A stretch of 64,000 nt of DNA from Myxococcales bacterium (GCA_022184915.1 JAGTJU010000008.1:6760-70759), one strand, 5' to 3'; shown: positions 15,910 through 59,882, counted from the stretch's first letter. Notes: generated from the letters alone by a model not told the origin. Made by a program: numbers and translations.

Positions 15910-16197
15910 GATGACCCGAGGTTAGGCGGCTGCCAGCCGCAAAACAAGCGAGTACGCTCGAACGGTGCCAGGTGATGGTGGAGCGAAGGTCACCCTGTCG
16001 TACAGCGCGTTCGACCCCGACTCATGCCCCGAACGCACTGGCGTGGTTGCCTGGCCCGCCCCGCAAGATCCCGCTCTCGGAACGGTGCACCCCGGTCGAC
16101 TCGAGTGCGGCCAGCCGGTTCCGGGCGAGAGTAGGTTTCTTTACAACGTGCCCGCGCCGGGAGGGAACGCTGGCCAAGGGGCGCCTCCGTGCTCCGT

Positions 16198-18532: not shown

Positions 18533-18533
18533 A

Positions 18534-21270: not shown

Positions 21271-21306
21271 GCGAATTGTTCCTTGGTTTGGGGTGTTTCG
21301 GTGGGC

Positions 21307-22008: not shown

Positions 22009-22009
22009 G

Positions 22010-23005: not shown

Positions 23006-23020
23006 GGCGTGGCCTCAGCG

Positions 23021-23917: not shown

Positions 23918-24037
23918 CCAGTGACGATGCTATCCGCGCCGGATAATATCTGCGGCTTCGCGCCATGGCAACAGGAAACACGGGCGCGCTTTGCTTGTAG
24001 AACCTCTGGGTGACTCGAAACTAGGAGGGTCCCGAGG

Positions 24038-27338: not shown

Positions 27339-27376
27339 CCGGCAGCAAGGCAGAGGATGCGAGGCGGCTTACGTTA
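27338..27376 (+). repeat. repeat-family copy D (5' 39 bp only, ends …CTTACGTTAG)
   Basis: CCCGGCAGCAAGGCAGAGGATGCGAGGCGGCTTACGTTAG directly abutting the ISAzo13-like element. Confidence 0.7.
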
Positions 27377-28707
27377 GGGGCTGCCGCGAAAAAAGTCGAT
27401 CGTCTCGTCATGTCGGTACGGTCGGGTGGATGGTGTAGTTCCACTCGCCGTGGAAGACGTTGGGATCGAGATTCACGAGTGCGAGGTCCTTGTCCGAGAC
27501 GCGGCGACCCTTGGCGTAAGTGCGACTGTCGACTCGGCTCTTCACGAGCAGTCCGGTCGTCGTCGTCGTCGCTGCGATTAGATTGACGATGACTTGATGG
27601 GTGACCAGAGGCTTTCCGCGCCAGTTCTGGGTGATGAAGGAAAACAAGCGGTGCTCGATCTTGTTCCACTTGCTCGTTCCCGGAGGCAGATGACAGACGG
27701 TGATGGGGAAGCGCAGGTCGTCGACGAGCTTTTGTAGCTCGAGCTTCCATAGGCGCAGCCTATAGCCGTTGCTTCCACCTCCGTCCGCCGTGATCACGAG
27801 CGAGGTCGCGTTTGGATACCTCGAGGCGCCCATCTCGCTCCACCAGGTGCGGATGCTCTGCACCGCGAATTCCCCCGTGTCGTGGCTCACGCCAACGCTG
27901 ACCCACGCCTCGTTCTTCTGGAGGTCGTAGATGCCGTACGGTGTGGCGCGTCCCTTTTCGTCGTCGACGAAGTCGTGCACGTTGACATCGACCGGATCTT
28001 CCTTCCCGCTGAGCTCGCGGCCGCCGTTCTTGTACGGTCCGACAAGCTCTCGTTTCTTCGTGTCCACAGAGATCGCCGGCTCGTTCGTTTCGAGCTGTCG
28101 ACGGAGTGTCTCGTTGATGTGCTCAAACTGAGCGTTTCGATCTGGATGCTGCGCGCCCTCAAGCCGCTTGCGATTCGCCTGGAGACTGTAGCCGAGCTCC
28201 TTGAGCAGTCTTGAGACCATCTTCATGCTCGTTTGGTGCCCCTGCTTCTTGAGCGCCTCCACGAGATTGCGCTGGCTACGAGCTGTCCACAGAAGCGGCG
28301 ACTCGGGATCTCCGCGTGTCGTCGATTCTACAAGCTTCTTCAGATCCGGAATCAATCTCGGATCCTTCTCGGTTGCCTTCTTGCGCCCGGCGCCTGGTCG
28401 ACGGCTTCGCGTTGGCGGTAAATGCCTCGCCGTCCCGTTTTCGATCGCCCGTACTTCGGCGATCCCGCGCCCCACCACGCTCGGTGCCATACCCGTCGCA
28501 CGAGATGCAGCGACAATGCCGCCGTAGCCAAAAGCGATCGCCTCGTTCGCCACGAATAGCCGCCGAGCTCTCTCTGTCAGACTCCCCTTTATCTTGCCGT
28601 AGCGATCCCGTATCTCGGATTCACGCCGCGATCGTTCCTTGGTCATGCACCTCCAATGGAGATCCTCCTCGCAGATAAAGTCAACCTATTTATTTCGCGG
28701 CAGGCCC
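27377..28707 (-). mobile_element. ISAzo13-family insertion sequence, copy 1 (1331 bp)
   Basis: Terminal inverted repeats GGGGCTGCCGCGAAAAAAGTCGATCG / (rc) GGGCCTGCCGCGAAATAAATAGGTTGAC. It contains a single 412-aa DDE transposase gene. Identical in length and ORF to the copy at 41814-43144. Confidence 0.75.
27408..28646 (-). CDS. ISAzo13-family (DDE_Tnp_ISAZ013-type) transposase
   Basis: 412 aa. N-terminus MTKERSRRESEIRDRYGKIKGSLTERARRLFVANEAIAFGYGGI… and a DDE region. 100 % identical to the protein of ORF 41875-43113. Confidence 0.75.
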   Translation of the reverse strand: MTKERSRRESEIRDRYGKIKGSLTERARRLFVANEAIAFGYGGIVAASRATGMAPSVVGRGIAEVRAIENGTARHLPPTRSRRPGAGRKKATEKDPRLIPDLKKLVESTTRGDPESPLLWTARSQRNLVEALKKQGHQTSMKMVSRLLKELGYSLQANRKRLEGAQHPDRNAQFEHINETLRRQLETNEPAISVDTKKRELVGPYKNGGRELSGKEDPVDVNVHDFVDDEKGRATPYGIYDLQKNEAWVSVGVSHDTGEFAVQSIRTWWSEMGASRYPNATSLVITADGGGSNGYRLRLWKLELQKLVDDLRFPITVCHLPPGTSKWNKIEHRLFSFITQNWRGKPLVTHQVIVNLIAATTTTTGLLVKSRVDSRTYAKGRRVSDKDLALVNLDPNVFHGEWNYTIHPTVPT

Positions 28708-28744
28708 TAACGTAAGCCGCCTTGCGCCCTAAGCTTGCTGCCGG
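28708..28744 (-). repeat. repeat-family copy E (inverted, 5' 37 bp only)
   Basis: The reverse complement is CCGGCAGCAAGCTTAGGGCGCAAGGCGGCTTACGTTAG. Together with copy D it forms an inverted pair around the IS. Confidence 0.7.
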
Positions 28745-29851: not shown

Positions 29852-31658
29852 ATGTCAACGCAAAGTAGAAATGTCCGCTTTTCTGCAAGTTAGAAATGTC
29901 CTCCATGCGGCGCGTCAGGGGGTATTAGCGGAGGCGGGGTTTTGGCCACTTGTCCATAGATGCACGGCGGGCACGGCCCATGCCCAGGGCAGGTGGCGAC
30001 GTGCAGCTGTGGGCAAGTGCAGGGCCAAAAGCATGCCGCAGCGGCTGGTGAGCTACGCCAGCCGCTACGGCTACGTGGCGCCGTTGGTGCCCCGGTCCAG
30101 GGGGGGGGTCGACGCCTCGCGGGCTGCGGCTCTGCGGGCGCGTGCGGCTTCGGTGTAGCGACGCTGCTTGGCTTTTTGTTCCCGGTCAAACTCTTGCAAA
30201 TAGCTGGCGAAGGCTTCCGCTGCGCCAGGGTTAATGCCCGTGGGCGTTGGTCCCGCTGATTCAGCCTCCGCGCGTTGGGCACGCAATCGTTCCTTTTGTC
30301 GAAGCGTGAGCTTCTTGGACCTAAGACGGGCTTCATCTCGAACCTGCTGCTGCTGCTGAATGACCGCCAGCGCAGTGCCCAATCGATTGTTCTCGACAAT
30401 CTCACCCTGGTTCACGTGGGGACTCTTGTCGAAGAGTGCAAAGGAAAGCGGCTGGTTGTTGTGGCGCAATTGCACTTGGCCGTCTTTCCACAAGTGCACG
30501 CGCACGGTCTTTCCCGCAAGCTTGCTCGTTTCTGTCGTTGGTTCGACCAGATATGAGTTTCTCTGAAACTGCACCACCAGACTCTGCGACAGCTTTCGGT
30601 CCTCTTGCCACGTGAAGATGAGATTCAAGTCCTCGCCCTCAAGCAAGGGACGGTGGGCATTATGAAGACTGCGAGGAGCACGCTCGAAGCGGTTGTTGTA
30701 GGCGTCCATAAAGGCAGGGACGAAGGCATTCGCATCTTCCGCATTGCTGATACCATGAAGCCGCAGCTCCTTGACCAAACGGTCTTGCAGCGTCTTGTTC
30801 ATGCGCTCTACACGACCTTTGGCCTGCGCTGTGTTCGCACAAATGATGTCTATGTTTAGTTCTCCCAATGCGCGACCATACTGCGTGACACCCTTTGCCG
30901 CACCTGTTGAACCTTCCTGGTTTACTCGGAAGATGCTGTGTTTGTCGCTATAGAAGGCCGCTGGCTTTCCATGCTTCCGTACGTAGCTTGCAGTCGCATC
31001 GAAGTAGTCGAAGGCCGATTCCACTTCCACAAAGCGCAGCTCCATCAGCCTTCCCGTGGCATCGTCGATGAACACCAACAGGGTGCATCTTTGTCCGCGG
31101 CCCTCGAACCATTCGTGATCGCTCCCATCTATCTGAACCAGCTCACCAAGACAGTCCCGCCGTCTTCGCGGCTGGTGGATGCGCGGCCCTCGTTGCGCCC
31201 GCGGCGTCCAGATCTCGGCGCCGATCATCCACTTGCGCAACGTCTCCCGGGATACACGAACGCCATGTAGCTCAGTAAGTTTCTCGTGAGCCAACGTCGG
31301 CCCGAAGTCCCTGTAGCGCTCACTGATGAGACCTACGGCGTACTCTTGCACCACCTCCGGCAACTGACGGTTGCTGGGGCGTCCGCGCTTTCGCGACACG
31401 AGAGCCCGAGGCCCTTGACACCTCATGGACTGGCACAATCGGCGCACCTGGCGCTGACTAAGTCCCAGAACCATGGCGGCTTCTGCTTGCGTCAGCCGCT
31501 TTTCCAACACTCGCTGGACGACCTGCATTCGGTCCATTTCCAGCGCGCTCATCGTGACAAGATCCCTGGCCATTGCGGCCCGAGGCTGCCAGGCAGCGGC
31601 GCCCAAAAGAGGACATTTCTAAGTTGCACAAAGCGGACATTTTCACTTTGCGTCTACA
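29852..31658 (-). mobile_element. IS21-family element (type 2), istA only, no istB
   Basis: Ends are TGTCAACGCAAAGTAGAAATGTCCGC and (rc) TGTAGACGCAAAGTGAAAATGTCCGC. Only ~220 bp remain beyond the istA stop. Fragments of this element also occur at 9203-9394 and 12203-12489. Confidence 0.75.
30071..31606 (-). CDS. istA: IS21-family transposase IstA
   Basis: 511 aa, HTH plus DDE. A paralogue of 9550-11133. Confidence 0.85.
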   Translation of the reverse strand: MGAAAWQPRAAMARDLVTMSALEMDRMQVVQRVLEKRLTQAEAAMVLGLSQRQVRRLCQSMRCQGPRALVSRKRGRPSNRQLPEVVQEYAVGLISERYRDFGPTLAHEKLTELHGVRVSRETLRKWMIGAEIWTPRAQRGPRIHQPRRRRDCLGELVQIDGSDHEWFEGRGQRCTLLVFIDDATGRLMELRFVEVESAFDYFDATASYVRKHGKPAAFYSDKHSIFRVNQEGSTGAAKGVTQYGRALGELNIDIICANTAQAKGRVERMNKTLQDRLVKELRLHGISNAEDANAFVPAFMDAYNNRFERAPRSLHNAHRPLLEGEDLNLIFTWQEDRKLSQSLVVQFQRNSYLVEPTTETSKLAGKTVRVHLWKDGQVQLRHNNQPLSFALFDKSPHVNQGEIVENNRLGTALAVIQQQQQVRDEARLRSKKLTLRQKERLRAQRAEAESAGPTPTGINPGAAEAFASYLQEFDREQKAKQRRYTEAARARRAAAREASTPPLDRGTNGAT

Positions 31659-31728
31659 TCAGAAAGCCCGATAAAATATGTTCTGTCAACTAACGTAAGC
31701 CGCCTTGCGCCCTAAGCTGGCTGCCGGG
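31659..31728 (-). repeat. repeat-family copy F (full ~70 bp)
   Basis: The reverse complement is CCCGGCAGCCAGCTTAGGGCGCAAGGCGGCTTACGTTAGTTGACAGAACATATTTTATCGGGCTTTCTGA. It directly follows the IS21 terminus. Confidence 0.7.
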
Positions 31729-31783
31729 CGCCTCGGCGTCAGACCAGACGGGGTTTTTCTTTTCTTCCGGGCGCAAGATACTC

Positions 31784-34622: not shown

Positions 34623-35244
34623 CTAGCCACCGATTACAAAGCCGAACCGCGCCTGATCAGTGCGGCCATCGGCCAACTCCACGTTCACGGTCGTAAGCCA
34701 GTACCCTGGCATGAACAAATTCACGGGCGCGGCCTGATACTGACCTGACTGAGGCCCCGACGTCACGACGACCGTCGTTCCGGACCCATGTCCATGGTCC
34801 GGCATGCGAGGCACCACCGTAACTCTCGCCCCCTCGGGCCGCGTGCCGTCGATTGGCCTCACGAGCAACGACCACTGGCTTTGTCCCTTCAGGGGTGGCG
34901 GAGGCGTCGCCTCGAGAAGGGTGACCTCAATGAGGCCTCTTTCACCTGTTGCCACCATGCCGGGAACGAAGACCAGCGCCCGCGCGTCGCGTGGGTCCAC
35001 CTGAAGCGGGGGGGGCCGCGTCCCCCGGCGGACTTTGCCCCAGGCCTTCGTCGTTCCTTTCCCCTGCGTCCTCGGTTGGTCCTTGGCCGAGAGGCGCAGG
35101 GCCAGCCGCATCCGTCGGGGAGGGGGCCGGGTCATCGCAGCCGGCCAGGACGAGCAGGGCCCAGAGCGGCGCCAGAGCGAGGAACTCCCCCCGGCGGATG
35201 CGGCTTCCGGGCCTTCCTCTGCGAATCAAGGCGCGCAGCAACAT
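34623..35244 (-). CDS. lipoprotein, reading frame broken at a G/C8 homopolymer (35008-35015)
   Basis: The signal/lipobox MLLRALIRRG…LLVLAGCDD lies in one frame (TGATG-coupled to the upstream cytochrome gene). The conserved-looking body …VFVPGMVATGERGLIEVTLLEAT… lies in the -1 frame. The switch maps to the C8 run. Confidence 0.4.
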
Positions 35245-36122
35245 CAATCCGAGACCTTGATGGTCGCGGCTACGGGTTGCAACTGGGTCCGCACATACTG
35301 GACCGCCCGCTCGATCTCCGCCCGCGAAAACACCTTGTGGTACGGCGACATGTGGGAGAAAGCTGAACCATCGGGCAGGCGACCGATGGACCCGAAGGCT
35401 ACCATGCGCGCCTGTTCCGCGGCAGAACGCTTTTCGAGCCAGTTCGCGATGGTGCGACCGCCGGCCTGCTCCTGCTCGCCGGGCATGAAGTAGACTTTGA
35501 ACTTGGTCAGGTCGACAGCTTGGCCAGACCAATCCGCATGGCAATTCGTGCAGGCGCGGGGCCCGGTCTCGGGCAGCATCGCCTCGTAGACCTCTTTACC
35601 CGTTTTTCCCGCGTCGGCAGGCAACACGACGCAGCTAATCCCGTTGCAGCCATTCGTTCCCGCACAGGTGTGTTCGGTCGTGACGCCGGGATCCCAGTCC
35701 CCGTAGGAAAAGCCCGCGCAGCTGTTGACGCCCGCGCAGGCGGCGTGCACCTGCGTGTAGCCTGCGCGCTGATCACAGGCTTGCTTGATCTCCGCGAAGG
35801 TGCGGGTGCCTTCCGTTTCCAGAGTGACCATGGGTCCCACGGGAGCTGCCGCGTCCGCAGGGGCAGGGGCCGCGTCGGGAAGCGAACAAACTCCCCCATC
35901 GCTTGGCCCGGCATCGGCTTGCGGGGGAGGGCAGGAGCACATCGACGACGCGTCGAGGACCACGGGGTCGGGTTCCATGGTCGCATCGTCACTGCATCCC
36001 AGAGCCCCGACGCCCAGCAAGCCGGTCAGGGCGCTGGTCATCAGGGCACGCGTGGGCGTGCTCGCGACGTTCGAGGGAAGGGCCGGTGCGATGAGGCTGA
36101 AGAGGCGAGCTCTACGGGACAT
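35244..36122 (-). CDS. lipoprotein with a single CxxCH haem-c-binding motif (cytochrome-c-like)
   Basis: Lipobox LLGVGALGCSDD, Cys-rich, with CTNCH at about residue 205. Confidence 0.5.
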   Translation of the reverse strand: MSRRARLFSLIAPALPSNVASTPTRALMTSALTGLLGVGALGCSDDATMEPDPVVLDASSMCSCPPPQADAGPSDGGVCSLPDAAPAPADAAAPVGPMVTLETEGTRTFAEIKQACDQRAGYTQVHAACAGVNSCAGFSYGDWDPGVTTEHTCAGTNGCNGISCVVLPADAGKTGKEVYEAMLPETGPRACTNCHADWSGQAVDLTKFKVYFMPGEQEQAGGRTIANWLEKRSAAEQARMVAFGSIGRLPDGSAFSHMSPYHKVFSRAEIERAVQYVRTQLQPVAATIKVSD

Positions 36123-36253: not shown

Positions 36254-36880
36254 TCACTTCAAGATGGCGCGCATGTCTCGAAAACCCGCCGTATCGGGCG
36301 GAGACACATCGAACCCCTCGGTCCCGATATCGACCGAAACCGTGTGGTTAGCCCCCGCGCCGTTGCGATCGGTGAGCTCCATTCTCAGTGCGTAACCCCC
36401 TGCAGCGATCTCACACCCGTGCAAATCCCGAAGGTCCCAAACAACCTCGTGAACCGTGTGTCCCGTCAAGGTAGCACCCGTGATGGCATCCACCTCGTTG
36501 CCCCCCGAGACGGCGAGCCAGGCCGAGAGCCACTTGGCGCGCACGTTGCCCCACGAAGCGAGCGTACGGACGAACTGCCCTTGGCTCGTCTCCATCCAAA
36601 TGGCGCCCACGTTCTTGGGTGCGAAGCGGCCTCCCAGGGGAGCCGTGCGGACCGTGAAGGTGAGCGTGCGTTCAGATCGTGGAACCGCGCACGCCGGATT
36701 GTTGTCCGGAGCGTCCGCAGACCCTGCATCTCGGACGAACAGCTCGGTAGGCAGGGTAAGCGCGTCGGTGTCAAGGAAGTCTTTGGCTGGGTCTGTCGGG
36801 TAGCAGGCCGTGAGGCAAACCAGGACGAGAGCCGAAAGCCACGACGCGCGAGCGGGTGCGCCCTGTTTCTGGGTTCGTTC
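36254..36880 (-). CDS. lipoprotein, hypothetical (start codon not identified)
   Basis: The C-terminal ~200 aa of ORF 36254-37999 are protein-like (signal …WLSALVLVCLTACYP, then a beta-rich domain ending DMRAILK). The upstream 380 aa of that ORF are an antisense artefact. No ATG is present near the signal peptide. Confidence 0.4.
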   Translation of the reverse strand, partial: ERTQKQGAPARASWLSALVLVCLTACYPTDPAKDFLDTDALTLPTELFVRDAGSADAPDNNPACAVPRSERTLTFTVRTAPLGGRFAPKNVGAIWMETSQGQFVRTLASWGNVRAKWLSAWLAVSGGNEVDAITGATLTGHTVHEVVWDLRDLHGCEIAAGGYALRMELTDRNGAGANHTVSVDIGTEGFDVSPPDTAGFRDMRAILK

Positions 36881-37954
36881 GTCGTGGGGGCGTTCTCCTG
36901 CGGGGGGCCTGCTCGGACCACGTTGGCCTCGTCCTCCGTCTACGTGCGGGCGGATACCGACCGCACCACCGTCGTCTCCCCGGAGATTCGCGCCGCGGCC
37001 GCGGTGGGAGAGAGGGTCACCGTCGAGGCCTCCGAGGTCGTGGATGCGTGGACGGGCGCCTCGATCGACGTCATCACGGCTGCCACCGGCACCATCCGCG
37101 AGCGGCGCTTCGAGACGAACGCCCAGGTGGGCTACAGGGGTGACCTCTGGGCGTTCGCCCTGGGGCTTCGGCACTCTTTCGAGAACGACTACGGGTCTTT
37201 GGGGGGCTCGCTGCGGCTGGCGGCTGACGTCTTCCAGCGCAACACCACCTTGGCTTTGGTGGGTTTTGGAAGCACGGATGCAGTGGGACGTGCGGGAGAT
37301 CCAGGCTTCCGCCGCGGGGTCGTGCAGCTGGGGGGGCGTGTCTCCGTCACGCAGGTGTTGACGCGTTCGACGCTGGCCGAGTTGCAGTGGGAGAGCGTTC
37401 GCCTCGAAGGATATCAAGCGAGTCCCTATCGCTTCGTGGGCGTTGGTGGCGATGGCGTGTGTGGGGGGCGAGCGGTGTTCTGTCTGCCCGAACATGTACC
37501 GGACGGTCGTCTGCGCAACGCACCCTCGATCCGGTTGCGCCAGGCGCTCTCCACCCGCGCCTCTTTGGGTTGCGATTATCGCTTCTACTTCGATTCTTGG
37601 GGCTTGCAGTCCCACACCATCGAACCTGACCTTGCCTGGCTGATGGGGCGGTCGGGAACGTTGAGCGTAAGCTTTCGCCATCACACGCAAGGACGGGCTG
37701 ACTTTTACCGCGCTCGTTACCTTGGTCTCGACGGCAGTGAAGGATTTTTTACGCGTGATCGCAAGCTCTCGACGTTCTCGTACCATGGTGTGGGACTCTC
37801 CTACGTTCACGATCTGAGGCTTCGCGACGAGGGTACGGTCCTGCAACTGGGGGCTCGTGCCGCCTTTACACGATTTCATTATCTGGAGTTCCTTGGGCTT
37901 GAACGGGTATCGGTGCTCGAGACCACGGCGTACGTCGCCTTGCGCTTCGAGTGA
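36810..37954 (+). CDS. outer-membrane beta-barrel-like protein (DUF3570-like pattern), 5' end uncertain/frameshifted
   Basis: From ~36840: RRASGCALFLGSFVVGAFSC (signal-like), then alternating-hydrophobic beta-strand sequence through …TAYVALRFE. The ATG at 36810 is in a different frame, so either a frameshift or a non-ATG start is needed. Confidence 0.4.
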
Positions 37955-38679
37955 CGTCGGCGCAGGTGACGACCCGCAACGAGGGCGAGACAAGCCCATG
38001 GCACAGACGGGATGCTCCCCCCGGCGGCGGACAGTGAACAGCCCGCCAGGGGTGTGCCTTCGGCGCGCAGTTCGTGACGAACTTCGAGCACACCGTCACC
38101 TTGGCTGTCGCCTGCGCTGTTTGAAAGCACCACCCCGAGTGCGAAGGTCAGCGACTTCGTCGGGGGCGCTGTAAAGGAGAGCGAGACCTCGCTGGCGCCG
38201 CAGTCGAGAACACCCACCACGCGCCGGAAACCAAGGTCATGCGCGTAAAACGCAGGTGGCGCGCTACCGACTTCGTCGCAGCGGGATGCTGGGTTCGCCT
38301 CGGCAGCAGGGGGCAATGTCACGGGAGGTGAACGGCCGAGGTCATCCATCAGTTCCATTTGCAGTGCGTGAGAGCCCCGATCCGGTGGCCAGCTCAGAGT
38401 GAGATTGTAGGTGGCGCCGGGAATGAAGGTGCGGGGCAGGGCGCTCTCGACGGGGGCGTCGTTCGTGAGGTTCCGCCAGGCGATGGCCACGACCGGCTCG
38501 GGGCCTCCCTCGTGGCATACACCGCAGCCAAACCCATCACCTGGCGCTCCCGTGAATTGTCTGCCCCCGCCACCGCCCTCCAGCGCCGGCAGCGCGAAGC
38601 GCCCGGGGTCCGAGAACGCCTGCGCAGATGAAGGAGCTGCAAGACCTGCGAGGCAGAACGCGGCCATCAGTGGCTTCAT
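37879..38679 (-). CDS. secreted CxxCH-motif protein with MYXO-CTERM-like C-terminal sorting tail
   Basis: Signal MKPLMAAFCLAGLAAPSSAQA, CGVCHEG, and a C-terminal …GCSLSAAGGSIPSVPWACLALVAGRHLRRRH (GCS, hydrophobic stretch, RRR). Confidence 0.5.
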   Translation of the reverse strand: MKPLMAAFCLAGLAAPSSAQAFSDPGRFALPALEGGGGGRQFTGAPGDGFGCGVCHEGGPEPVVAIAWRNLTNDAPVESALPRTFIPGATYNLTLSWPPDRGSHALQMELMDDLGRSPPVTLPPAAEANPASRCDEVGSAPPAFYAHDLGFRRVVGVLDCGASEVSLSFTAPPTKSLTFALGVVLSNSAGDSQGDGVLEVRHELRAEGTPLAGCSLSAAGGSIPSVPWACLALVAGRHLRRRHSKRKATYAVVSSTDTRSSPRNSR

Positions 38680-39137
38680 CGAAGAGTCTCCGCGGTCACG
38701 GCCCAGAAAAAGAGCGCCTCCCATCGGGGATCCCTCTTTGTCAGATAGATGCTTTGGCCCCAGGGGTCGTCACCCGCGTGACCTGCACCGCCTGCCTCCA
38801 CGGCCAACGGTTTTCGAAGGAGGGGGCCGCGCCGGACGCCGGATTCGCCCGCCAGCATGGAGGCCGCTCGTGTATACGCGAGGGCCAGCTCCTCAGCCGT
38901 GGGAGGATCGAAGAGGGCCGTCGCTGGGTCGAGCCGGGTGCGCCCGGGGCCGTGCACGCGAAAGAAGCGCTGTTCGTTTCCGTGACAACCCGAGAACGCG
39001 CAGTCGGCGAGCAGAATCGGATAGACGGTGGACGCAAACGCCGCAGGGTCGGGGCGGGGGGGGGACGCCTCCTCGGGAGGGGGTGCGCAGGCCCACAGGA
39101 TCGAGCCGACGAAGCACGCGCCCCATCGCCTCAGCAT
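38676..39137 (-). CDS. small secreted protein with CAFSGCH motif
   Basis: Signal MLRRWGACFVGSILWACA, 153 aa. It is overlap-coupled between the DUF2063 gene and the CxxCH-protein gene. Confidence 0.45.
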   Translation of the reverse strand: MLRRWGACFVGSILWACAPPPEEASPPRPDPAAFASTVYPILLADCAFSGCHGNEQRFFRVHGPGRTRLDPATALFDPPTAEELALAYTRAASMLAGESGVRRGPLLRKPLAVEAGGAGHAGDDPWGQSIYLTKRDPRWEALFFWAVTAETLR

Positions 39138-40015
39138 GGGTCTACGCCCTCCCAGAAGCCGAACTTCACCGACTCGGCAAGCCAGGCCTTCACAAGGTGC
39201 GAAAGACGAGTGGGGGGCAAAGCGATGGCTTCACGCTCGAGAGCCGCCAGGGCCTCGGCCAGCGGCAATTCCGACAAGCGTTCGTAGAGACGTGCCTGCA
39301 ATTCGTCGATCAGCCACAGGCGAGGCCCGGTTTCGCCCCTTACGAGGGCGGCGTGAACCCGCCGGGGGTGTTGCGGGGGTAGGGGCACGGGGGCTTCTGG
39401 AGGGAGTGAGGTCAAGCGGCTGCGCAACGCGAGCAGGGGCCAGTCTTCCTCGACCAAAAAGAACCGACCCGAGGGACGAAGGCGGCCCGTGGCCAGCTGG
39501 TCCGTGCCGACTCGCTGAAACGCACGCGACGTCTCCGCCCGGGGTTCCGGGGCCCAAAAAGCTGCACGGTACGCAGCATCGATGCGAGCGGCCTGGACGA
39601 GCGCCGTGGCGGATACGGCCGCACCCTCGAACGGCGGGAGTCCTGCGTTGTGACCTTGCGCGAGCCAATCGTCGAAGCCGAGGGCAACCTCCCCGAGGTC
39701 GTGCCCCCGGGGTGGGTGCTTTTCCAGGAAGCCTGCGACCAAACCGTTGAAGCCCCAAGCCCCCGCCAGTGCCGCGACCAGGCGATACTCGTTTTGCATG
39801 ACCGCGAACAAACGAAACCAGTACTGTCGCTGGTAGACCGCCAGCCTTTCGCCGGGACTGAGCCCATGGCCCGCTTTGGCCTCGTTCAACAGTCGACGAG
39901 GATAGTCTTCAGGACGGGCTCGCAGCGTCCGCGACCTGCGGTCCAGGGGCGTTCTCAGGACGTCAGAGAAGTCTCTCTGAAACTGCGCGAGCCAGGCAGG
40001 GCCTGCCAGGGTCAT
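39131..40015 (-). CDS. DUF2063-family protein (MNIO partner; BufC/HvfC-like)
   Basis: Start at MTLAGPAWLAQFQRDF (ATGA overlap with the DUF692 stop). RLAVYQRQYWFRLFAVMQNEYRLVAALAGAWGFNGLVAGFLEKHPPRGHDLGEV matches the DUF2063 core (vYrnn…FP…G…F…HPP…L). Confidence 0.6.
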   Translation of the reverse strand: MTLAGPAWLAQFQRDFSDVLRTPLDRRSRTLRARPEDYPRRLLNEAKAGHGLSPGERLAVYQRQYWFRLFAVMQNEYRLVAALAGAWGFNGLVAGFLEKHPPRGHDLGEVALGFDDWLAQGHNAGLPPFEGAAVSATALVQAARIDAAYRAAFWAPEPRAETSRAFQRVGTDQLATGRLRPSGRFFLVEEDWPLLALRSRLTSLPPEAPVPLPPQHPRRVHAALVRGETGPRLWLIDELQARLYERLSELPLAEALAALEREAIALPPTRLSHLVKAWLAESVKFGFWEGVDPC

Positions 40016-40956
40016 GCGCGGACCTTTCGTGCCTCGGCGAGTTCCTCGATGACGACCTCGAGGGGTGGTATCGCTGCGTCCCACTCGACGAGCGTAGGAA
40101 AGGGCCCCCCCAAAGCCCAGGCGAAGCGATAGAGCTCCCAAACCTCCCGAATGATGGGTTGGTCGTGGGTGTCGATGATCGTTCCATCCGGCTGTTTCGT
40201 GTGGCCAGCGAGGTGCACCTGCAGCACGCGCGAGTAGTCGATCGCCTCGAGGTACACCCGTGGGTCGAAGCCGTGGTTGACGCTCGAAACGTACACGTTG
40301 TTGATGTCCAACATGAACCAGCAGCCTGAGTCTTTGACGACGCGGGAGTAAAACTCCCACTCCGGCATGGAGGAGCGCTCGAATGCGACGTAGGTGGACA
40401 GGTTCTCGATGCCAAAGGGCCGGTCAAGCCGGCGCTGCACTTCACAAGCACGCTCTGCAGCCAGCTCGACGAGCTCGGGGACATAAGGGGTGGGCAGCAG
40501 GTCGTGGTGCGAGACGCCTTCGGCCCCCGACCAGCACAGGTGATCGGTGACGAAAGGCACCGCGAGAGCATTGGCCAGATCGGTGACCTTCTGCAGGTAC
40601 TCTTCGTCGAGAGGCGCGTGTCCCAGGAGGTTCAGCGTCACCCCGTGCATGACCACGGGATAGAGGGCACGAATCCGTGCCAGATGCCGGTTGGGTGGTG
40701 AGTCTGGACGAAGATAGTTCTCCGTAATGATCTCGACGTAATCAACGGGTGGTTTGGTCGTCTGGAGTGCGTCGTAAAACGGGGGCCGGAGCCCAACGCC
40801 CAGGGCGTCGCGGGCGAGGGCAGGCCTGGCGGTGTCTTTGGCCTTTGGAGACACGAGCCCGGGAGGGTACCTCAGGATCGTTCTGCCTCCCCTGCGGCAA
40901 TAGGTCGCACCCCCTGACCTTGCCCCCGGGGCTGGCTGGCGGCACCCTCGTGGCAT
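40012..40956 (-). CDS. DUF692/MNIO-family enzyme (BufB/HvfB-like)
   Basis: LGVGLRPPFYDALQTTKPPVDYVEIITENYL… HGVTLNLLG… FMLDINNVYVSSVNHG… LQVHLAGH is a canonical DUF692 domain. The true start may be a GTG near 40851 rather than the first ATG. Confidence 0.7.
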   Translation of the reverse strand: MPRGCRQPAPGARSGGATYCRRGGRTILRYPPGLVSPKAKDTARPALARDALGVGLRPPFYDALQTTKPPVDYVEIITENYLRPDSPPNRHLARIRALYPVVMHGVTLNLLGHAPLDEEYLQKVTDLANALAVPFVTDHLCWSGAEGVSHHDLLPTPYVPELVELAAERACEVQRRLDRPFGIENLSTYVAFERSSMPEWEFYSRVVKDSGCWFMLDINNVYVSSVNHGFDPRVYLEAIDYSRVLQVHLAGHTKQPDGTIIDTHDQPIIREVWELYRFAWALGGPFPTLVEWDAAIPPLEVVIEELAEARKVRA

Positions 40957-41185
40957 GCAGGATCGCAGTTTGCGCACACGTCTCGGCCTTCTTGCCTGCG
41001 CGCTTCTTTCGTTCCTCACGGGCTGCCTGCGTGTTCCGCCCTACCTGCGAGAGACCCTGGCCCGACGCGACATGACCCTGGGGCGGGAGGCCGCCCTTCG
41101 AGCGGGGGAACGCCACGCGCAGGCCTACCGAGAAGGTGCGAGTGGGGGAGGAGAGGTCCGAAGTGGAGGTTGCGGGTGCAACTGA
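40955..41185 (+). CDS. 76-aa lipoprotein ending in GGCGCN (candidate MNIO substrate/precursor)
   Basis: Lipoprotein signal MQDRSLRTRLGLLACALLSFLTGC, then a 52-aa mature peptide ending …GGGEVRSGGCGCN*. It is divergent from the DUF692-DUF2063 operon. Confidence 0.4.
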   Translation: MQDRSLRTRLGLLACALLSFLTGCLRVPPYLRETLARRDMTLGREAALRAGERHAQAYREGASGGGEVRSGGCGCN

Positions 41186-41689: not shown

Positions 41690-41795
41690 GGTGGATAGGA
41701 AGTTTAAAGGAGACAACGCGTCGAGTCAGAAAGCCCGATAAAATATGTTCTGTCAACTAACGTAAGCCGCCTTGCGCCCTAAGCTGGCTGCCGGG
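41690..41795 (-). repeat. repeat-family copy G (longest, ~106 bp, includes the GTGGATAGGAAGTTTAAAGGAGACAACGCGTCGAGTCAGA extension)
   Basis: …GGTGGATAGGAAGTTTAAAGGAGACAACGCGTCGAGTCAGAAAGCCCGATAAAATATGTTCTGTCAACTAACGTAAGCCGCCTTGCGCCCTAAGCTGGCTGCCGGG. Confidence 0.7.
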
Positions 41796-41813
41796 CAAAG
41801 GAATCGTCAGAAA

Positions 41814-43144
41814 GGGCCTGCCGCGAAATAAATAGGTTGACTTTATCTGCGAGGAGGATCTCCATTGGAGGTGCATGACCAAGGAACGATCGCGGCGTGA
41901 ATCCGAGATACGGGATCGCTACGGCAAGATAAAGGGGAGTCTGACAGAGAGAGCTCGGCGGCTATTCGTGGCGAACGAGGCGATCGCTTTTGGCTACGGC
42001 GGCATTGTCGCTGCATCTCGTGCGACGGGTATGGCACCGAGCGTGGTGGGGCGCGGGATCGCCGAAGTACGGGCGATCGAAAACGGGACGGCGAGGCATT
42101 TACCGCCAACGCGAAGCCGTCGACCAGGCGCCGGGCGCAAGAAGGCAACCGAGAAGGATCCGAGATTGATTCCGGATCTGAAGAAGCTTGTAGAATCGAC
42201 GACACGCGGAGATCCCGAGTCGCCGCTTCTGTGGACAGCTCGTAGCCAGCGCAATCTCGTGGAGGCGCTCAAGAAGCAGGGGCACCAAACGAGCATGAAG
42301 ATGGTCTCAAGACTGCTCAAGGAGCTCGGCTACAGTCTCCAGGCGAATCGCAAGCGGCTTGAGGGCGCGCAGCATCCAGATCGAAACGCTCAGTTTGAGC
42401 ACATCAACGAGACACTCCGTCGACAGCTCGAAACGAACGAGCCGGCGATCTCTGTGGACACGAAGAAACGAGAGCTTGTCGGACCGTACAAGAACGGCGG
42501 CCGCGAGCTCAGCGGGAAGGAAGATCCGGTCGATGTCAACGTGCACGACTTCGTCGACGACGAAAAGGGACGCGCCACACCGTACGGCATCTACGACCTC
42601 CAGAAGAACGAGGCGTGGGTCAGCGTTGGCGTGAGCCACGACACGGGGGAATTCGCGGTGCAGAGCATCCGCACCTGGTGGAGCGAGATGGGCGCCTCGA
42701 GGTATCCAAACGCGACCTCGCTCGTGATCACGGCGGACGGAGGTGGAAGCAACGGCTATAGGCTGCGCCTATGGAAGCTCGAGCTACAAAAGCTCGTCGA
42801 CGACCTGCGCTTCCCCATCACCGTCTGTCATCTGCCTCCGGGAACGAGCAAGTGGAACAAGATCGAGCACCGCTTGTTTTCCTTCATCACCCAGAACTGG
42901 CGCGGAAAGCCTCTGGTCACCCATCAAGTCATCGTCAATCTAATCGCAGCGACGACGACGACGACCGGACTGCTCGTGAAGAGCCGAGTCGACAGTCGCA
43001 CTTACGCCAAGGGTCGCCGCGTCTCGGACAAGGACCTCGCACTCGTGAATCTCGATCCCAACGTCTTCCACGGCGAGTGGAACTACACCATCCACCCGAC
43101 CGTACCGACATGACGAGACGATCGACTTTTTTCGCGGCAGCCCC
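41814..43144 (+). mobile_element. ISAzo13-family insertion sequence, copy 2 (inverted relative to copy 1)
   Basis: Same 1331-bp element as 27377-28707 with the same termini. Only the flanks differ. Confidence 0.75.
41875..43113 (+). CDS. ISAzo13-family transposase (identical to 27408-28646)
   Basis: 412 aa identical. The ORFs nested on the opposite strand (41843-42205 and others) mirror those of copy 1. Confidence 0.75.
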   Translation: MTKERSRRESEIRDRYGKIKGSLTERARRLFVANEAIAFGYGGIVAASRATGMAPSVVGRGIAEVRAIENGTARHLPPTRSRRPGAGRKKATEKDPRLIPDLKKLVESTTRGDPESPLLWTARSQRNLVEALKKQGHQTSMKMVSRLLKELGYSLQANRKRLEGAQHPDRNAQFEHINETLRRQLETNEPAISVDTKKRELVGPYKNGGRELSGKEDPVDVNVHDFVDDEKGRATPYGIYDLQKNEAWVSVGVSHDTGEFAVQSIRTWWSEMGASRYPNATSLVITADGGGSNGYRLRLWKLELQKLVDDLRFPITVCHLPPGTSKWNKIEHRLFSFITQNWRGKPLVTHQVIVNLIAATTTTTGLLVKSRVDSRTYAKGRRVSDKDLALVNLDPNVFHGEWNYTIHPTVPT

Positions 43145-43430
43145 TTAGTCTCAGGGGTAAAGCACTCAAGGAGGCCGCGGCCACTCTTGACATAAGCGTG
43201 AAAACAGTTGAGCAGTATTGGGCGCGGATCTACGTCAAGATTGGCTGCAATAGCCGGGAAGCTGTTGTAGGCCAGCTTGTTGAAATGATGACTGAAAGCC
43301 CAGATAACTATTTATCAGACCCACGCACAAGCGGCCGTGCCTAGGACGTTCCAAGCGCGAGACGTCCATGTGTCCTATTTTGGCGTGCGTACAGGAACTA
43401 CAAGCGCCACGTCCCTCCGCGGCAAATTTG

Positions 43431-43608: not shown

Positions 43609-45111
43609 TCAAGCCGGCCACAGATCCGAATCACATCCCGTCTCGCCCGTGCCTCCGGGCGGTCCCCTCGCCGGTGACCACGTGGGCACCTCCGCTGAGA
43701 GGCCCTTGTAGGCCAGGATCGTCTCGATAGCCCCCCGCTCTTGCACAGGGCCCAGCACCTTCATCGGCCCCGCGCAGCGCGGGCACACCAGCACCTCGTG
43801 AGCGAACACGCGCCGCATGAGCTCGGCCCAGCTCATCGCCGCTGCGTCGCCTCGCTCCCGTAGCTCCGTGACGTGGTCCTCACCCCCATCACCTTCGCCC
43901 TCGCGCTTGCCACACCCTCGTCGCGCCTTGCGCCCTGCCCCTCCCGGCACGATGCGGGCCCGATCCGCCGCCGCAGGCGCGAACACCCCGTGGTAGCGAA
44001 CCAGTTGGGCGCGCGGACGTGGCACCAACGCAACCAGCTTCTCGATGAACTCCTCGGGCGTAAACGCAACGTGCGTGGTGCCGTCGCGCCACGGCCGTTT
44101 GAGCCTGACGGCCACTCGCCCGTCGGGCAACTCCGAAAGCCTATCTTCGCTCAGCGGTGGCCGTGCGATGTAGCGAATCAGCCGCTCCAGGCCGTCCCTG
44201 TCGTTGGCTGCGATGCGCGTGCTGGCGTGCAGGTTGAAGCCCTCCACGAACGCGCACTGCTTCCCCAACACGTAGGGTTCCCACGACGCGATCGGATCGT
44301 TGCCGAGCCGCATGACCGCTTGTCCTCGGCGCCTTCCCGTGGCGATGAGGGCTTTGACCGAAGCGCCTGCGATCACGGAGAGCGCCTCGGCGTCGGCAGC
44401 GTCTCGTTCCTCTGACGAGGCAAGCGCCCGCGTTACACCCTCCCAGATCCGCGCGGTCACCTCGGCCACCTCCTCATCGCGCGGAGGTGGCGTGGCGAAG
44501 AACGCGGGCCGCCCGGGCGTGTCGACACGGAACACGCCGTCGGTCACAACGGAATGAAAGTGAACGTTCAGCGCAAGGCCCGAGCCGAAGCGCTGAATCA
44601 CCGTCACGGCGCCCGTGGCGAGCGCGCCGCGCACTCCGGCCTTGCGCGCACGCTTTCGGTACCACCGGCTCACCTCGCGCAGAAAGACCCTCAGCACCAC
44701 GCTGGCCAGGTGTGGCTCGCGCGCCATGCGGTAGCGAAGCGCGTGCGGCACCGTCAGCACCCACTGGCGTGCTGGGACCGCCGGAAACACGTTGTCCACC
44801 ACGTGCGCGGCCGTCTCGGCCATGCGCCGCCCAAGGCAGCTGGGGCAAAAGCCTCTTCGTTTGCACGAAAACGCCACGAGCCGCGTCTCGGCGCAGGCTT
44901 CGCAACGAACGTTGACGAACCCCTTGCCCAGAATCCCGCAACCCAGATACGCCTCGAACTCCGCCGCCACGAAGGCGGGCAGAAAACCACCCTCGCCTTG
45001 CAGATTGTCGCGGAACGTGAGCCAGGTGTCCTGCACCACGCGGTGAAGCTGCGTCTTTTCAGGCTCCCGGCGCCGATACCCCGAGACTTTCCCTGCGGCT
45101 CTGTCGACCAC
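43609..45111 (-). CDS. IS91-family (Y2 HUH rolling-circle) transposase
   Basis: The N-terminal zinc-ribbon is CEACAETRLVAFSCKRRGFCPSCLGRRM. The HUH-like motif is NVHFHSVVTDGVF. The C-terminal …RYIARPPLSEDRL…VRYHGVF is the tyrosine region. Confidence 0.7.
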   Translation of the reverse strand: MVDRAAGKVSGYRRREPEKTQLHRVVQDTWLTFRDNLQGEGGFLPAFVAAEFEAYLGCGILGKGFVNVRCEACAETRLVAFSCKRRGFCPSCLGRRMAETAAHVVDNVFPAVPARQWVLTVPHALRYRMAREPHLASVVLRVFLREVSRWYRKRARKAGVRGALATGAVTVIQRFGSGLALNVHFHSVVTDGVFRVDTPGRPAFFATPPPRDEEVAEVTARIWEGVTRALASSEERDAADAEALSVIAGASVKALIATGRRRGQAVMRLGNDPIASWEPYVLGKQCAFVEGFNLHASTRIAANDRDGLERLIRYIARPPLSEDRLSELPDGRVAVRLKRPWRDGTTHVAFTPEEFIEKLVALVPRPRAQLVRYHGVFAPAAADRARIVPGGAGRKARRGCGKREGEGDGGEDHVTELRERGDAAAMSWAELMRRVFAHEVLVCPRCAGPMKVLGPVQERGAIETILAYKGLSAEVPTWSPARGPPGGTGETGCDSDLWPA

Positions 45112-45285
45112 CCGGGCTTATCGCGCCCGCAAACGAGACCCGCCCCCCTGGAGCCCCGAAGAGGCTAGCCTGACAGGAGACGGAAGGGTGTACCCGGTCT
45201 GCCGGGCGGCCAAACGAAGCCTCTGGCCCCCCAACAGGAGAACGCCTGTTTCCAGGACCGGCCGGCACCTGATAGAAAGGCCGCC

Positions 45286-48846: not shown

Positions 48847-49478
48847 CCAACGCGCGTATCGCCTTGCTCGTTGTCTTTGTCCTGTGCGGCTGCGCGGGGC
48901 GCAACTACACCTACTATCTGCTCGATCCCCCGCCCGCCACGCATCCGGCGCTGACCGAGGGCGGCGTGCTGACGCGTCCCCTGGGATTCGGAAGCACCAC
49001 CGTGATGAAGGTGCGGTGGAATGACGGCAACGTCATCACGGAGGTGGACGTTCCGGTGCTCGCCACCGGCCAGCGCATCGTGATCGAACACGGCGCCGGC
49101 AGCCCGGACGTCAAGACCATCCCCGCGACCCGCGTGGTCCCGCCGCCGCCCACGCGTGCGGACGAAGCGCTCGTGGAGGCGTACCGCGCCCGCGGCCTGC
49201 GGGTGGACGAGGACGCGCCCGAGGTCAGCATCGTGCGCGCCCGCGCCTTGATGCAGGATGCGATCAAGGGCGGCAACTATCACGTGGCGCTCGAGTGGTG
49301 CGAAACGGTGCTCGCACGGTATAAATTGCACCCCGAGTTTCTCCGCGCCAAGGCCTCCTTGCTGCTGATGATGGGCGAACGTGACAAGGCCATCGAGATT
49401 TACGAGCAGGTCGAAGCGATCGAAAGCGACCCGGCGGTCCGCAGGAAGCTGGAAGAGCTTCAACGTCAACAAAGATAG
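48843..49478 (+). CDS. lipoprotein with helical (TPR-like) C-terminus
   Basis: Lipobox LCGCAG. ATGA overlap with the upstream gene. The C-terminal …ALEWCETVLARYKLHPEFLRAKASLLLMMGERDKAIEIYEQVEAIE is TPR-like. Confidence 0.5.
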   Translation: MTNARIALLVVFVLCGCAGRNYTYYLLDPPPATHPALTEGGVLTRPLGFGSTTVMKVRWNDGNVITEVDVPVLATGQRIVIEHGAGSPDVKTIPATRVVPPPPTRADEALVEAYRARGLRVDEDAPEVSIVRARALMQDAIKGGNYHVALEWCETVLARYKLHPEFLRAKASLLLMMGERDKAIEIYEQVEAIESDPAVRRKLEELQRQQR

Positions 49479-49486
49479 GAAGAGAC

Positions 49487-50221
49487 ATGCAGCTTCTTGG
49501 ATTGGCCCTTTTGGGTTTCATCGTTTGGTTCGGGTTTCGGGATCGCAGCAGCGACCAGGCGATCTCGGCCTTCGACGCACACGCGCTGGTCATGGTCCTC
49601 GTGGGCTCGGGCGCCGCGGTGCTCGTCAGCTCGCGGGGGCGCGATGCGCTGAGCACGCTCACGTCGCTGCGCGAATTGGTGCCCGGGCTCCGCGGCTACG
49701 GCGCCGCGAGCGCCGCCATGGAAGCGGAACGCAGCGAAGCGAGCGCTGCGTGGGAGGGAGCGCGGCGGCGCGAGGCGCTGGCCCTGGCCGAGCGCACCCG
49801 CTTTGCACCGGTCAAGCGGATGATCGAGCTGCTCATCGGCCGGGCCTCGGAAGGCGAGGCCACCAAGACCTTCATGGAGCTGCGGCACGCCGAGATCGCG
49901 CGGCTGCAACCGGCCATCAACAACTGGGAGATGTTGTCGAAGCTCGGCCCCGCCTTCGGCATGGTGGGCACCATCACGGGCATGATCCGTCTGTTTCAGA
50001 ACATGAGCGCCGAGAACCTGAACATCGGCGCCGCGATGTCCCTGGCGCTTCTGGCCACGCTGTACGGAGTGGCCTTCGGCGCCGGCGTGGCGGGGCCCAT
50101 CGCGCAGCACCTGAACCGGCTGCTCGACGAGCGGCTGGGGGTTCTCGAGCGTTGTGAAAAAAGCGCCATCGACTCGGGTTCTCGGGCCACCGTGGCGGCG
50201 CTCGAAGCGAGGGTAGGCTGA
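49487..50221 (+). CDS. MotA/PomA-like four-TM proton-channel stator subunit (MotA/TolQ/ExbB superfamily)
   Basis: TM1/TM2 close together at the N-terminus, a ~100-aa cytoplasmic loop, then FGMVGTITGMIRLF and AMSLALLATLYGVAFGAGVAGPIAQ as the TM3/TM4 signature. Confidence 0.7.
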   Translation: MQLLGLALLGFIVWFGFRDRSSDQAISAFDAHALVMVLVGSGAAVLVSSRGRDALSTLTSLRELVPGLRGYGAASAAMEAERSEASAAWEGARRREALALAERTRFAPVKRMIELLIGRASEGEATKTFMELRHAEIARLQPAINNWEMLSKLGPAFGMVGTITGMIRLFQNMSAENLNIGAAMSLALLATLYGVAFGAGVAGPIAQHLNRLLDERLGVLERCEKSAIDSGSRATVAALEARVG

Positions 50222-50224
50222 GCC

Positions 50225-50848
50225 ATGCAGCGGCGCCCCCTGCAGCACGAAGAGAGCTGGCTGCTCAGCTACGCCGACCTCATCACCAACTTGCTGCTGT
50301 TCTTCGTGGTGCTGCTGACGGCGGCGAACCTGAGCCGCGGCAAAATGCAGCAGATCGCCAAGAGCATCTCGGGCAGCGAAAGCCCGGCCAGCCTGGCCTC
50401 GATTCAAAAAGAGATAGAGGCGCAGATCGCAAGCAAGCAGCTCGAAAACATGGTTCGCACCAGCATGTCCGAGGCGGGGCTCGAGATCTCGATGAACTCA
50501 GGGCTGGTGTTCGATTCGGGCAAAGCCGTGATCCGGCCTGACCTGGAGAACACGCTGATGGCCATGTTGCAAGTGCTCGAACCCTATGCCCGAAAGTACG
50601 GCTTCGCCGTCGAGGGCCACACCGACGCCACCCCCATCACCGGCGGCGCGTTCGCCAGCAACTGGGAGCTGTCGAGCGCGCGCGCGATCGTGGTGCGGCA
50701 TCGGCTGGAAGCCGTGGGCATTCCCCGCGACCGCATCCGCGTCGAAGGCTATGCGGACACCAAGCCGCTTGCCGCAGACGAGCTTGCCGGTCTCAGTGTC
50801 GAAGAAACCCTGGCGCGCCACCGGCGCGTGGTCGTGAGGATATTCTGA
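50225..50848 (+). CDS. MotB-like stator subunit with OmpA-type peptidoglycan-binding domain
   Basis: N-terminal SWLLSYADLITNLLLFFVVLL has the MotB plug/TM with the conserved Asp. The C-terminal GHTDATPITGGAFASNWELSSARAIVVRHRL is the OmpA-family PG-binding motif. Confidence 0.75.
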   Translation: MQRRPLQHEESWLLSYADLITNLLLFFVVLLTAANLSRGKMQQIAKSISGSESPASLASIQKEIEAQIASKQLENMVRTSMSEAGLEISMNSGLVFDSGKAVIRPDLENTLMAMLQVLEPYARKYGFAVEGHTDATPITGGAFASNWELSSARAIVVRHRLEAVGIPRDRIRVEGYADTKPLAADELAGLSVEETLARHRRVVVRIF

Positions 50849-59103: not shown

Positions 59104-59195
59104 CACGTAAAGTCGTGTGAACGTCACGTTTGGCTTTGGCCGACATCCGACCCAAATGCTAACGTCTGGCCGCCCCGGCCACGACGGCCGCCTGG

Positions 59196-59855: not shown

Positions 59856-59882
59856 CCTTCGACGTTTCCTCGGAGACCCTCC

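Follow-up and report, generated by a model that had tools for sequence, protein, structure and literature searches.

Two kinds of gene cluster, each already known, are the closest described counterparts of the locus analysed here, which lies in a 64,000-nt stretch of DNA from a Myxococcales bacterium (hereafter the window; G+C about 65%) whose proteins have their closest database matches among entries annotated as proteins of Myxococcales metagenome-assembled genomes. The first is the buf2 bufferin cluster of Caulobacter vibrioides (bufA2-bufB2-bufC2, CCNA_02999-03001; PMC11626156), which combines an MNIO (DUF692) enzyme, a DUF2063 protein and a Sec-type six-cysteine precursor and is, like the window locus, without DoxX. 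The second comprises the ApbE/DUF3570/thioredoxin-like/DUF4266(/DsbD) clusters described by Meheust et al. 2021 (10.1101/2021.01.07.425746). In these, DUF4266 is a small secreted CXC protein, present in 221 DsbD-linked and 316 further clusters together with ApbE, DUF3570 and a thioredoxin-like protein; DUF3570 and DUF2271 were shown in the same work to be flavinylated by ApbE, and the [S/T]GA[S/T] motif is taken from it. The interval 37879-41185 of the window was singled out earlier on the strength of a small open reading frame (ORF) that faces the MNIO gene, ends in GGCGCN and was proposed to encode the MNIO substrate (the original prediction). Our analysis indicates that this interval is probably the junction of two co-travelling Myxococcota gene sets, in which the MNIO-DUF2063 pair most likely acts on a six-cysteine lipoprotein with a fused, predicted cytochrome domain, here termed Buf2cyt, and not on the product of the small ORF.

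The window resembles buf2 further in that its MNIO scores highest against the BufB model. It differs in the candidate precursor, which is 292 aa long, carries a lipoprotein signal, has an extended linker and a predicted cytochrome c domain at its C-terminus, and falls under the BufA2 cutoff; in the position of the precursor gene, which is not beside the MNIO but about 3 kb downstream of DUF2063 in another transcription unit; and in the placement of the maturase genes in an operon with two putative haem proteins. With the ApbE/DsbD-type clusters the window shares the DUF4266 CXC, DUF3570, DUF2271 and the [S/T]GA[S/T] motifs, but the window cluster is without an ApbE, thioredoxin or DsbD gene and has the p153 and p281 genes, a YtkA-like protein and the bufferin system instead. 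Bufferin domains joined to c-type cytochrome domains are known from the Buf1-Cytochrom_C fusions of an MNIO landscape survey (PMC12452194); those fusions carry DUF2282 (Buf1), whereas the window domain is Buf2-like, and the survey makes no mention of Buf2-like/cytochrome fusions, DUF4266, DUF3570, DUF2271 or ApbE. Its assembled-genome table gives Sorangium cellulosum five MNIO and three DUF2063 genes with no recognised precursor, which suggests that myxobacterial six-cysteine lipoproteins escape the published Buf_6/12Cys model. The DAG-RiPPs (RiPP, ribosomally synthesised and post-translationally modified peptide) of ChrH-related MNIOs (PMC13056109) are likewise MNIO-modified products with lipoprotein signals, including protein-size substrates, but they involve another MNIO subfamily, another partner protein and other chemistry. 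A literature search returned no paper reporting a linkage between the DUF4266 module and cytochrome-fusion bufferins, and none tying DUF3570 to copper; DUF3570 was absent from the MNIO/bufferin papers found.

Loci for comparison (L numbers) were ascertained with the window MNIO, scanned against one genome per species (80 loci, nearly all from Myxococcota, 42-69% identical to the window MNIO); with DUF4266 (four loci: L001, L094, L095 and L096); and with p153 (including L087, L088, L089, L090, L091 and L093). Hidden Markov models built from the window proteins were run across all six-frame ORFs of the 80 MNIO loci. One locus, L085, is an independent assembly of the window sequence, 99.99% identical over 9.9 kb with a single gap.

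The small ORF is a real, annotated gene and not a chance ORF. Its product matches Pfam PF14086 (DUF4266) over model positions 1-50 of 50 with 56.4 bits (gathering cutoff 27; E 5.7e-15) and is 99% identical to a database entry, P0001, annotated as "DUF4266 domain-containing protein [Myxococcales bacterium]"; an alternative NCBI start at TTG 40970 would give a product of 71 aa. The C-terminus, which reads ...RSGGCGCN, is shared by the family: a C-terminal CGC is found in all 24 distinct DUF4266 sequences of the fetched loci (GCGCN in 22, GCGCG in one and GCGCSN in one), and it is essentially unchanged in loci without a nearby MNIO (L001, L088, L090, L093, L094 and L096). Because the same terminus occurs with or without an MNIO nearby, the GGCGCN end is a DUF4266 family signature, and the small ORF encodes a typical member of a redox-protein family already described, not a new peptide substrate. 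Cys-Gly-Cys peptides have disulfide potentials near that of protein disulfide isomerase, compatible with a redox shuttle.

The genomic company of DUF4266 leads to the same assignment. In the window, DUF3570 is located 3 kb from DUF4266, and among the DUF4266-ascertained loci DUF3570 is present in four of four and an MNIO in none: L094 has the order thioredoxin-ApbE-DUF4266-DUF3570, L095 has DUF2271-DUF4266-DUF3570, and L096 and L001 group DUF3570, p281, p153 and DUF4266. DUF4266 was found within the fetched DNA of only 13 of the 80 MNIO loci. DUF4266 thus belongs to a redox module and is not the conserved partner of the MNIO. The small ORF is conserved, as the original prediction would have it, but its conservation is explained by the redox module, since it is kept beside p153, p281 and DUF3570 with or without an MNIO, and its proposed role as MNIO substrate is not supported.

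Other parts of that prediction are borne out. The MNIO and DUF2063 genes form a bufferin-type pair coupled by an ATGA overlap, they are followed in the operon by two secreted proteins with Cys/haem motifs (CAFSGCH in p153, CGVCH in p281), and a small lipoprotein ORF with an L-T-G-C lipobox diverges from them. The longest MNIO ORF extends over 40012-41019 on the minus strand, with the Pfam match beginning only at its residue 73; homologues align from about GTG 40854, and a start placed at this codon leaves exactly 100 bp to the small ORF. A scan in and around this spacer for sigma-70-like promoters and intrinsic terminators gave no matches. Short divergent DUF4266/MNIO spacers, of roughly 130-225 bp as counted from one matched or called gene end to the other, are also seen in L022, L058, L073, L087 and L089. 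The MNIO stop overlaps the DUF2063 start as ATGA, the DUF2063 stop overlaps the p153 start as ATGCTGA, and the p153 stop overlaps the p281 start as ATGA when p281 is read from its signal-peptide Met (38679); the junctions read cgcgcATGAccc, ccATGCTGAgg and cgATGAagc. Since each start/stop pair overlaps, the four genes are taken to be translationally coupled. Against the NCBIfam models the MNIO scores 301.2 bits for MNIO_BufB (NF050167; cutoff 310), its best-scoring MNIO subfamily, and 46.6 bits for ChrH (cutoff 600).

Across the MNIO-ascertained loci the pair is accompanied by a different candidate precursor. DUF2063 is positioned 3' of the MNIO in 76 of the 80 loci (tblastn), and a six-cysteine BufA2-like lipoprotein adjoins the MNIO-DUF2063 pair in 69, a member of the same family being encoded in the window as Buf2cyt. 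The association of the pair with another precursor family, which the original prediction named as an outcome that would speak against the small ORF, is therefore what was found. The 11 loci without the six-cysteine protein consist of six distant outgroups, four short or truncated contigs and one other locus (L071), and five of the six outgroup loci have small Cys/Lys/Gly-rich ORFs with signal peptides directly upstream of the MNIO. Buf2cyt is directly upstream of the MNIO in L072 despite an adjacent redox module.

Buf2cyt falls outside the coordinates of the interval originally considered. Its six-cysteine domain has the consensus F..C...GG.VE.H.HCGG.N.C.G.SYD......EH.C.G.N.C.G..C, and members of the family carry lipoprotein signals. 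In 50 of the 69 loci the protein is of a short form that ends right after the six-cysteine domain and is usually convergent with, and just downstream of, DUF2063; in the other 19 it is of a long form with a C-terminal domain containing an invariant CXXCH and Met. Without exception, the 21 long forms compared retain the six cysteines, the CXXCH and Met238. The relationship to BufA2 is based on NCBIfam scans of 76 locus-derived six-cysteine sequences, 34 of which match the BufA2 model (best E 5.9e-6); window Buf2cyt scores 19.1 bits (E 1.1e-3). The ccoP model is matched by eight of the 76 (best E 2.7e-9), window Buf2cyt itself having no match, and a Buf2cyt family profile run against the PDB gives weak matches to cytochromes c6 and CcoP (E 0.03-0.07). 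On sequence grounds the six-cysteine domain is thus classed as BufA2-like and not as a curated BufA2 member. Published Buf2 precursors span 51-367 residues, and 16% of them are lipoproteins. Gene neighbourhood makes Buf2cyt the likeliest substrate of the MNIO. Neighbour joining places the window MNIO with those of long-form, module-associated loci (L049, L073, L022, L058, L016 and L007), whose branches arise close to the base of the myxobacterial group; most of the short-form loci together form a large, derived section of the tree.

Table 1. Features of the bufferin and redox-module genes in the window (coordinates count from the first nucleotide of the 64,000-nt stretch)
Feature	Coordinates	Strand	Basis and remarks
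YtkA-like lipoprotein	34623..35243	-	PF13115 E 5.4e-7; start overlaps Buf2cyt stop
Buf2cyt, 292-aa lipoprotein	35244..36122	-	Low-complexity linker, six-cysteine BufA2-like domain, predicted class I cytochrome c domain (CTNCH ... Met)
DUF2271 lipoprotein, predicted ApbE flavinylation substrate	36254..36850	-	PF10029 E 6.1e-9; lipobox LTAC
DUF3570, predicted flavinylated outer-envelope protein	36890..37954	+	PF12094 E 2.1e-38; convergent with p281
p281, secreted, 266 aa from Met16	37879..38679	-	CGVCH; MYXO-CTERM-like tail
p153, lipoprotein with CX4CH (CAFSGCH)	38676..39137	-	Putative divergent monohaem cytochrome; no Pfam family
DUF2063/HvfC_N partner (BufC-like), 294 aa	39131..40015	-	PF09836 E 3.6e-14
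MNIO (DUF692), BufB-like, 280 aa from GTG 40854	40012..40854	-	PF05114 E 1.3e-92
Divergent intergenic region between DUF4266 and MNIO operon, 100 bp	40855..40954		Sequence reading
DUF4266 lipoprotein, 76 aa	40955..41185	+	Lipobox LTGC; C-terminal GGCGCN (CXC)

The two gene sets are arranged in several ways. Read in the direction of MNIO transcription, the window has DUF4266 (reversed), then MNIO, DUF2063, p153 and p281, then DUF3570 (reversed), then DUF2271, Buf2cyt and the YtkA-like gene, and this order is also found in L022 (an isolate genome, Nannocystaceae bacterium ST9), L058, L073, L087 and L089. The short contig L016 covers only the DUF4266-MNIO-DUF2063 part of it. Seven loci, counting the window and the partial L016, thus have the pair between DUF4266 and p153. 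In L049, L088, L090, L093 and L096, DUF4266 diverges from p153-p281 with no MNIO between them, and in L088, L090 and L093 DUF3570 is nearby without an MNIO. The MNIO-DUF2063 pair therefore looks inserted into an otherwise intact module. In L049 the module has a window-like order in which DUF4266 directly faces p153, and MNIO, DUF2063 and Buf2cyt form a contiguous unit of their own 5 kb away. With the sets naturally apart in this way, DUF4266 goes with the module and the MNIO with Buf2cyt.

A further arrangement, p153, DUF3570, DUF4266, Buf2cyt, MNIO, DUF2063, is found in L018, L026 and L067. L011 resembles it, but DUF3570 and p153 flank DUF4266 on opposite sides; L019 is also similar, with Buf2cyt downstream of DUF2063 and no DUF4266 detected. 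These five loci are from Polyangiaceae, Sorangium and Labilithrix. DUF4266 is present within the fetched DNA of 10 of the 19 loci with the long, cytochrome-fusion form and of one of the 50 with the short form, and the linkage of the redox module with the cytochrome-fusion bufferin type is real and recurrent. In L091/L092 (9838-18197), DUF4266, p153 and p281 are on one strand, and a different MNIO of 417 aa, preceded by three genes without Pfam matches, is situated about 6 kb downstream; here the module may be associated with an MNIO in a second way.

Several points weigh against the assignment of Buf2cyt as substrate and against the link between the two sets. The window MNIO is 9 bits short of the BufB equivalog cutoff, and Buf2cyt is far under the curated BufA2 cutoff (19 vs 60 bits); its gene is separated by about 3 kb from the end of the DUF2063 gene, in a different transcription unit of the window, and its AlphaFold model, made from a two-sequence alignment, is unusable (pLDDT, the predicted local distance difference test score, 33). 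The substrate assignment is drawn from gene neighbourhood. The Fisher test on the DUF4266 counts in long-form and short-form loci (p 2.6e-6) ignores shared ancestry. Modules without an MNIO could be served in trans, and the genome of L088 does have an MNIO locus elsewhere (L064). Lastly, ApbE, DsbD and thioredoxin were not found in the ten cluster genes and 20 further large ORFs of the window, a search that left small ORFs and gaps flanked by insertion sequences (ISs) unscanned.

Three other explanations were considered. The first is that p153, p281 or both are the MNIO substrates, with the cysteines of CX4CH or CXXCH modified instead of binding haem. The ATGA-type coupling of the four genes and the retention of the same order in L022, L058, L073, L087 and L089 are in keeping with this, as are the invariance of the p153/p281 cysteines, the Sec or lipoprotein signals of the two proteins and a putative signal-peptide "CxxxxC" precursor family reported in the literature. 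Yet p153-p281 occurs without an adjacent MNIO in L001, L088, L090, L093 and L096, and the published CxxxxC clusters carry DoxX and Lactamase_B_2 genes that are not seen here; such a role is very unlikely. p153 itself was considered as a CxxxxC precursor and set aside on this misfit of cluster content, a separation made by description only.

The second is that the two gene sets are neighbours without a functional link, brought together by IS-driven rearrangement. The 13-kb region has an ISAzo13 copy on either side, the two being identical and inverted, IS21-like and IS91-like elements are nearby, and each gene set also occurs alone. The same architecture is nevertheless found again in unrelated assemblies from several families, independent genomes whose contig titles give the names Nannocystaceae, Kofleriaceae, Polyangiaceae, Sorangium and Labilithrix; another arrangement, equally tight, exists in L011, L018, L019, L026 and L067; translational coupling spans the boundary between the sets; and the module associates specifically with the cytochrome-fusion form. 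Chance juxtaposition by ISs is rejected because the gene order recurs in independent genomes, and we consider an unlinked neighbourhood highly improbable. Least probable is that the DUF4266 lipoprotein is the sole or an additional substrate of the MNIO/DUF2063 pair, its C-terminal Cys-Gly-Cys becoming thiooxazole-type copper ligands: in seven loci, the window included, DUF4266 diverges from the MNIO at a distance of roughly 100-225 bp, and it is within 10 kb in the 13 MNIO loci noted above, far over random expectation; MNIO target motifs typically have Gly after Cys, some MNIO substrates are lipoproteins (DAG-RiPPs) and tandem precursors suggest more than one substrate for some MNIOs. Against this, the CGC terminus is independent of a nearby MNIO, DUF4266 classically occurs as ApbE-DUF4266-DUF3570 accompanied by thioredoxin, the separated sets of L049 keep DUF4266 beside p153-p281 and the MNIO beside Buf2cyt, and the six-cysteine protein is also present in every DUF4266-bearing MNIO locus with enough sequence.

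With Buf2cyt as the probable substrate, a two-part scheme can be proposed. The first set would be a bufferin-type maturation pair, the BufB-like MNIO and its DUF2063 partner, which by analogy with BufB/BufC would work in the cytoplasm, ahead of Sec export and lipidation, and turn some Buf2cyt cysteines into copper-binding 5-thiooxazoles; the product would be a membrane-anchored copper-binding domain tethered to haem c. The second set would be an extracytoplasmic redox module consisting of DUF4266, p153, p281, DUF3570, DUF2271 and the YtkA-like lipoprotein, with DUF4266 contributing a lipoprotein that bears a C-terminal Cys-Gly-Cys dithiol/disulfide. The window pair occupies what is elsewhere the divergent DUF4266/p153 spacer, and has there become translationally coupled to p153-p281. 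Judging from module composition, the sets could together form a relay from thiol to flavin to haem that passes electrons to or from the haem/thiooxazole-copper lipoprotein, and the outcome might be periplasmic copper redox handling instead of passive copper buffering. What is observed directly is which genes are present, their order, their translational coupling and the repeated occurrence of the arrangement in different genomes.

A more far-reaching proposal is that Buf2cyt is a new redox protein, with an MNIO-made thiooxazole-copper centre fused to a c-type haem and wired to a dedicated envelope electron-transfer chain of the DUF4266 CGC dithiol, flavinylated DUF3570 and DUF2271, and two novel haem proteins; we regard this as possible though doubtful. 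If it were true, some "bufferins" would be catalytic or electron-transfer copper sites, for example in a periplasmic Cu(II)/Cu(I) reductase or oxidase, and the orphan DUF4266/DUF3570 system would have a copper-linked function. A short Cys-terminal lipoprotein beside an MNIO is, on the present evidence, not automatically an MNIO precursor, and a more likely one is the myxobacterial six-cysteine BufA2-like lipoprotein that current models leave unrecognised. A physical link, extending to translational coupling, recurs between bufferin maturation genes and an extracytoplasmic redox module of the flavinylation type; should the link be functional, DUF4266/DUF3570 would acquire a testable copper-related role and thiooxazole-copper sites could serve electron transfer. 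The embedding of a bufferin-like system with a putative cytochrome-fused precursor in such a module remains of interest.

The individual proteins of the redox module add detail to this picture. p153 has 197 homologues, all annotated as hypothetical, and none of 120 members matched a Pfam family. In the p153 alignment C46, C51 and H52 (the CX4CH) and H120 are invariant, and the lipobox Cys is nearly so. AlphaFold confidently predicts an all-alpha fold (pLDDT 93); neither a Foldseek comparison of the model with the PDB nor a profile search of PDB sequences gave a match. With moderate confidence, p153 is predicted to be a divergent monohaem lipoprotein. p281 has the conserved motif GGGGR.FTG.P.DG..C.VCH, and the CXXCH and three further cysteines are conserved at 90% or more in 15 homologues. 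Its tail consists of Gly-Cys, a hydrophobic stretch and an Arg-rich end (GC..hydrophobic..RRRR); such a tail is visible in the window and at least seven homologues, most homologues have one of the MYXO-CTERM type, and no NCBIfam C-terminal sorting-signal model matched at E <= 0.1. A weak match of p281 to "choice-of-anchor V" (E 2e-4) is under the cutoff.

DUF3570 has the flavinylation-type motif TGAS (in DAWTGASID) and a degenerate second site (TAAT), and DUF2271 has TGAT (in DAITGATLTGH). The two genes adjoin at their 5' ends: one stretch of about 100 bp (36790-36900) encodes both signal peptides, each on its own strand, and no ATG, GTG or TTG start is near the signal peptide of either. Either the two 5' ends overlap or translation begins at unusual codons. 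L089 and L090 show this tight junction too. In the window, a single additional C near 35015 shifts the frame of the YtkA-like gene, which is intact (206 aa) in L085; the additional C is either a sequencing error or the mark of a pseudogene. MbnP/MbnH (PF20243 / CCP_MauG) pairs are located 0.1-1.2 kb downstream of the last cluster gene in L087 (one pair, 14480-16659) and L089 (two pairs, 14963-19066); this copper-associated context is absent from the IS-bounded window copy.

The two inverted ISAzo13 copies, 100% identical, are located at 27376-28708 and 41813-43145 and bracket the whole cluster of 13.1 kb. The IS21-like transposase gene (30071-31606) is inside this bracket and an IS91/ISCR-like transposase gene (43609-45117) just outside it. 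A 71-nt repeat, 31659-31729, recurs at 41726-41796 beside the IS ends, with related copies at 28676 and 43423.

Further loci of the window include two with MNIO-like genes. An MNIO of 471 aa with a C-terminal extension (3454-4869, minus strand) diverges from a TIGR04222 membrane protein (5046-6107, plus strand; 64 bits vs cutoff 43) that ends in (G5C)n repeats. The original prediction had drawn a parallel between this locus (3454-6107) and the DUF4266 locus; the MNIO does face a gene with a Gly/Cys-ending product, but the resemblance is superficial, the locus being a known MNIO-TIGR04222 pairing without DUF2063. A third MNIO-like gene (23021-23929, minus strand; weak PF05114 match, 34 bits) heads a minus-strand operon, 17136-23929, that also encodes a pentapeptide-repeat protein, a B12-binding radical SAM enzyme, a TP_methylase-like protein, an Asp/Asn beta-hydroxylase and a kinase-like protein, and looks like a separate RiPP-type cluster. 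Two sets of MotA/ExbB-type and OmpA/MotB-type genes, at 49385-50848 and 59163-60323, are set in a long plus-strand run of large ORFs without Pfam matches.

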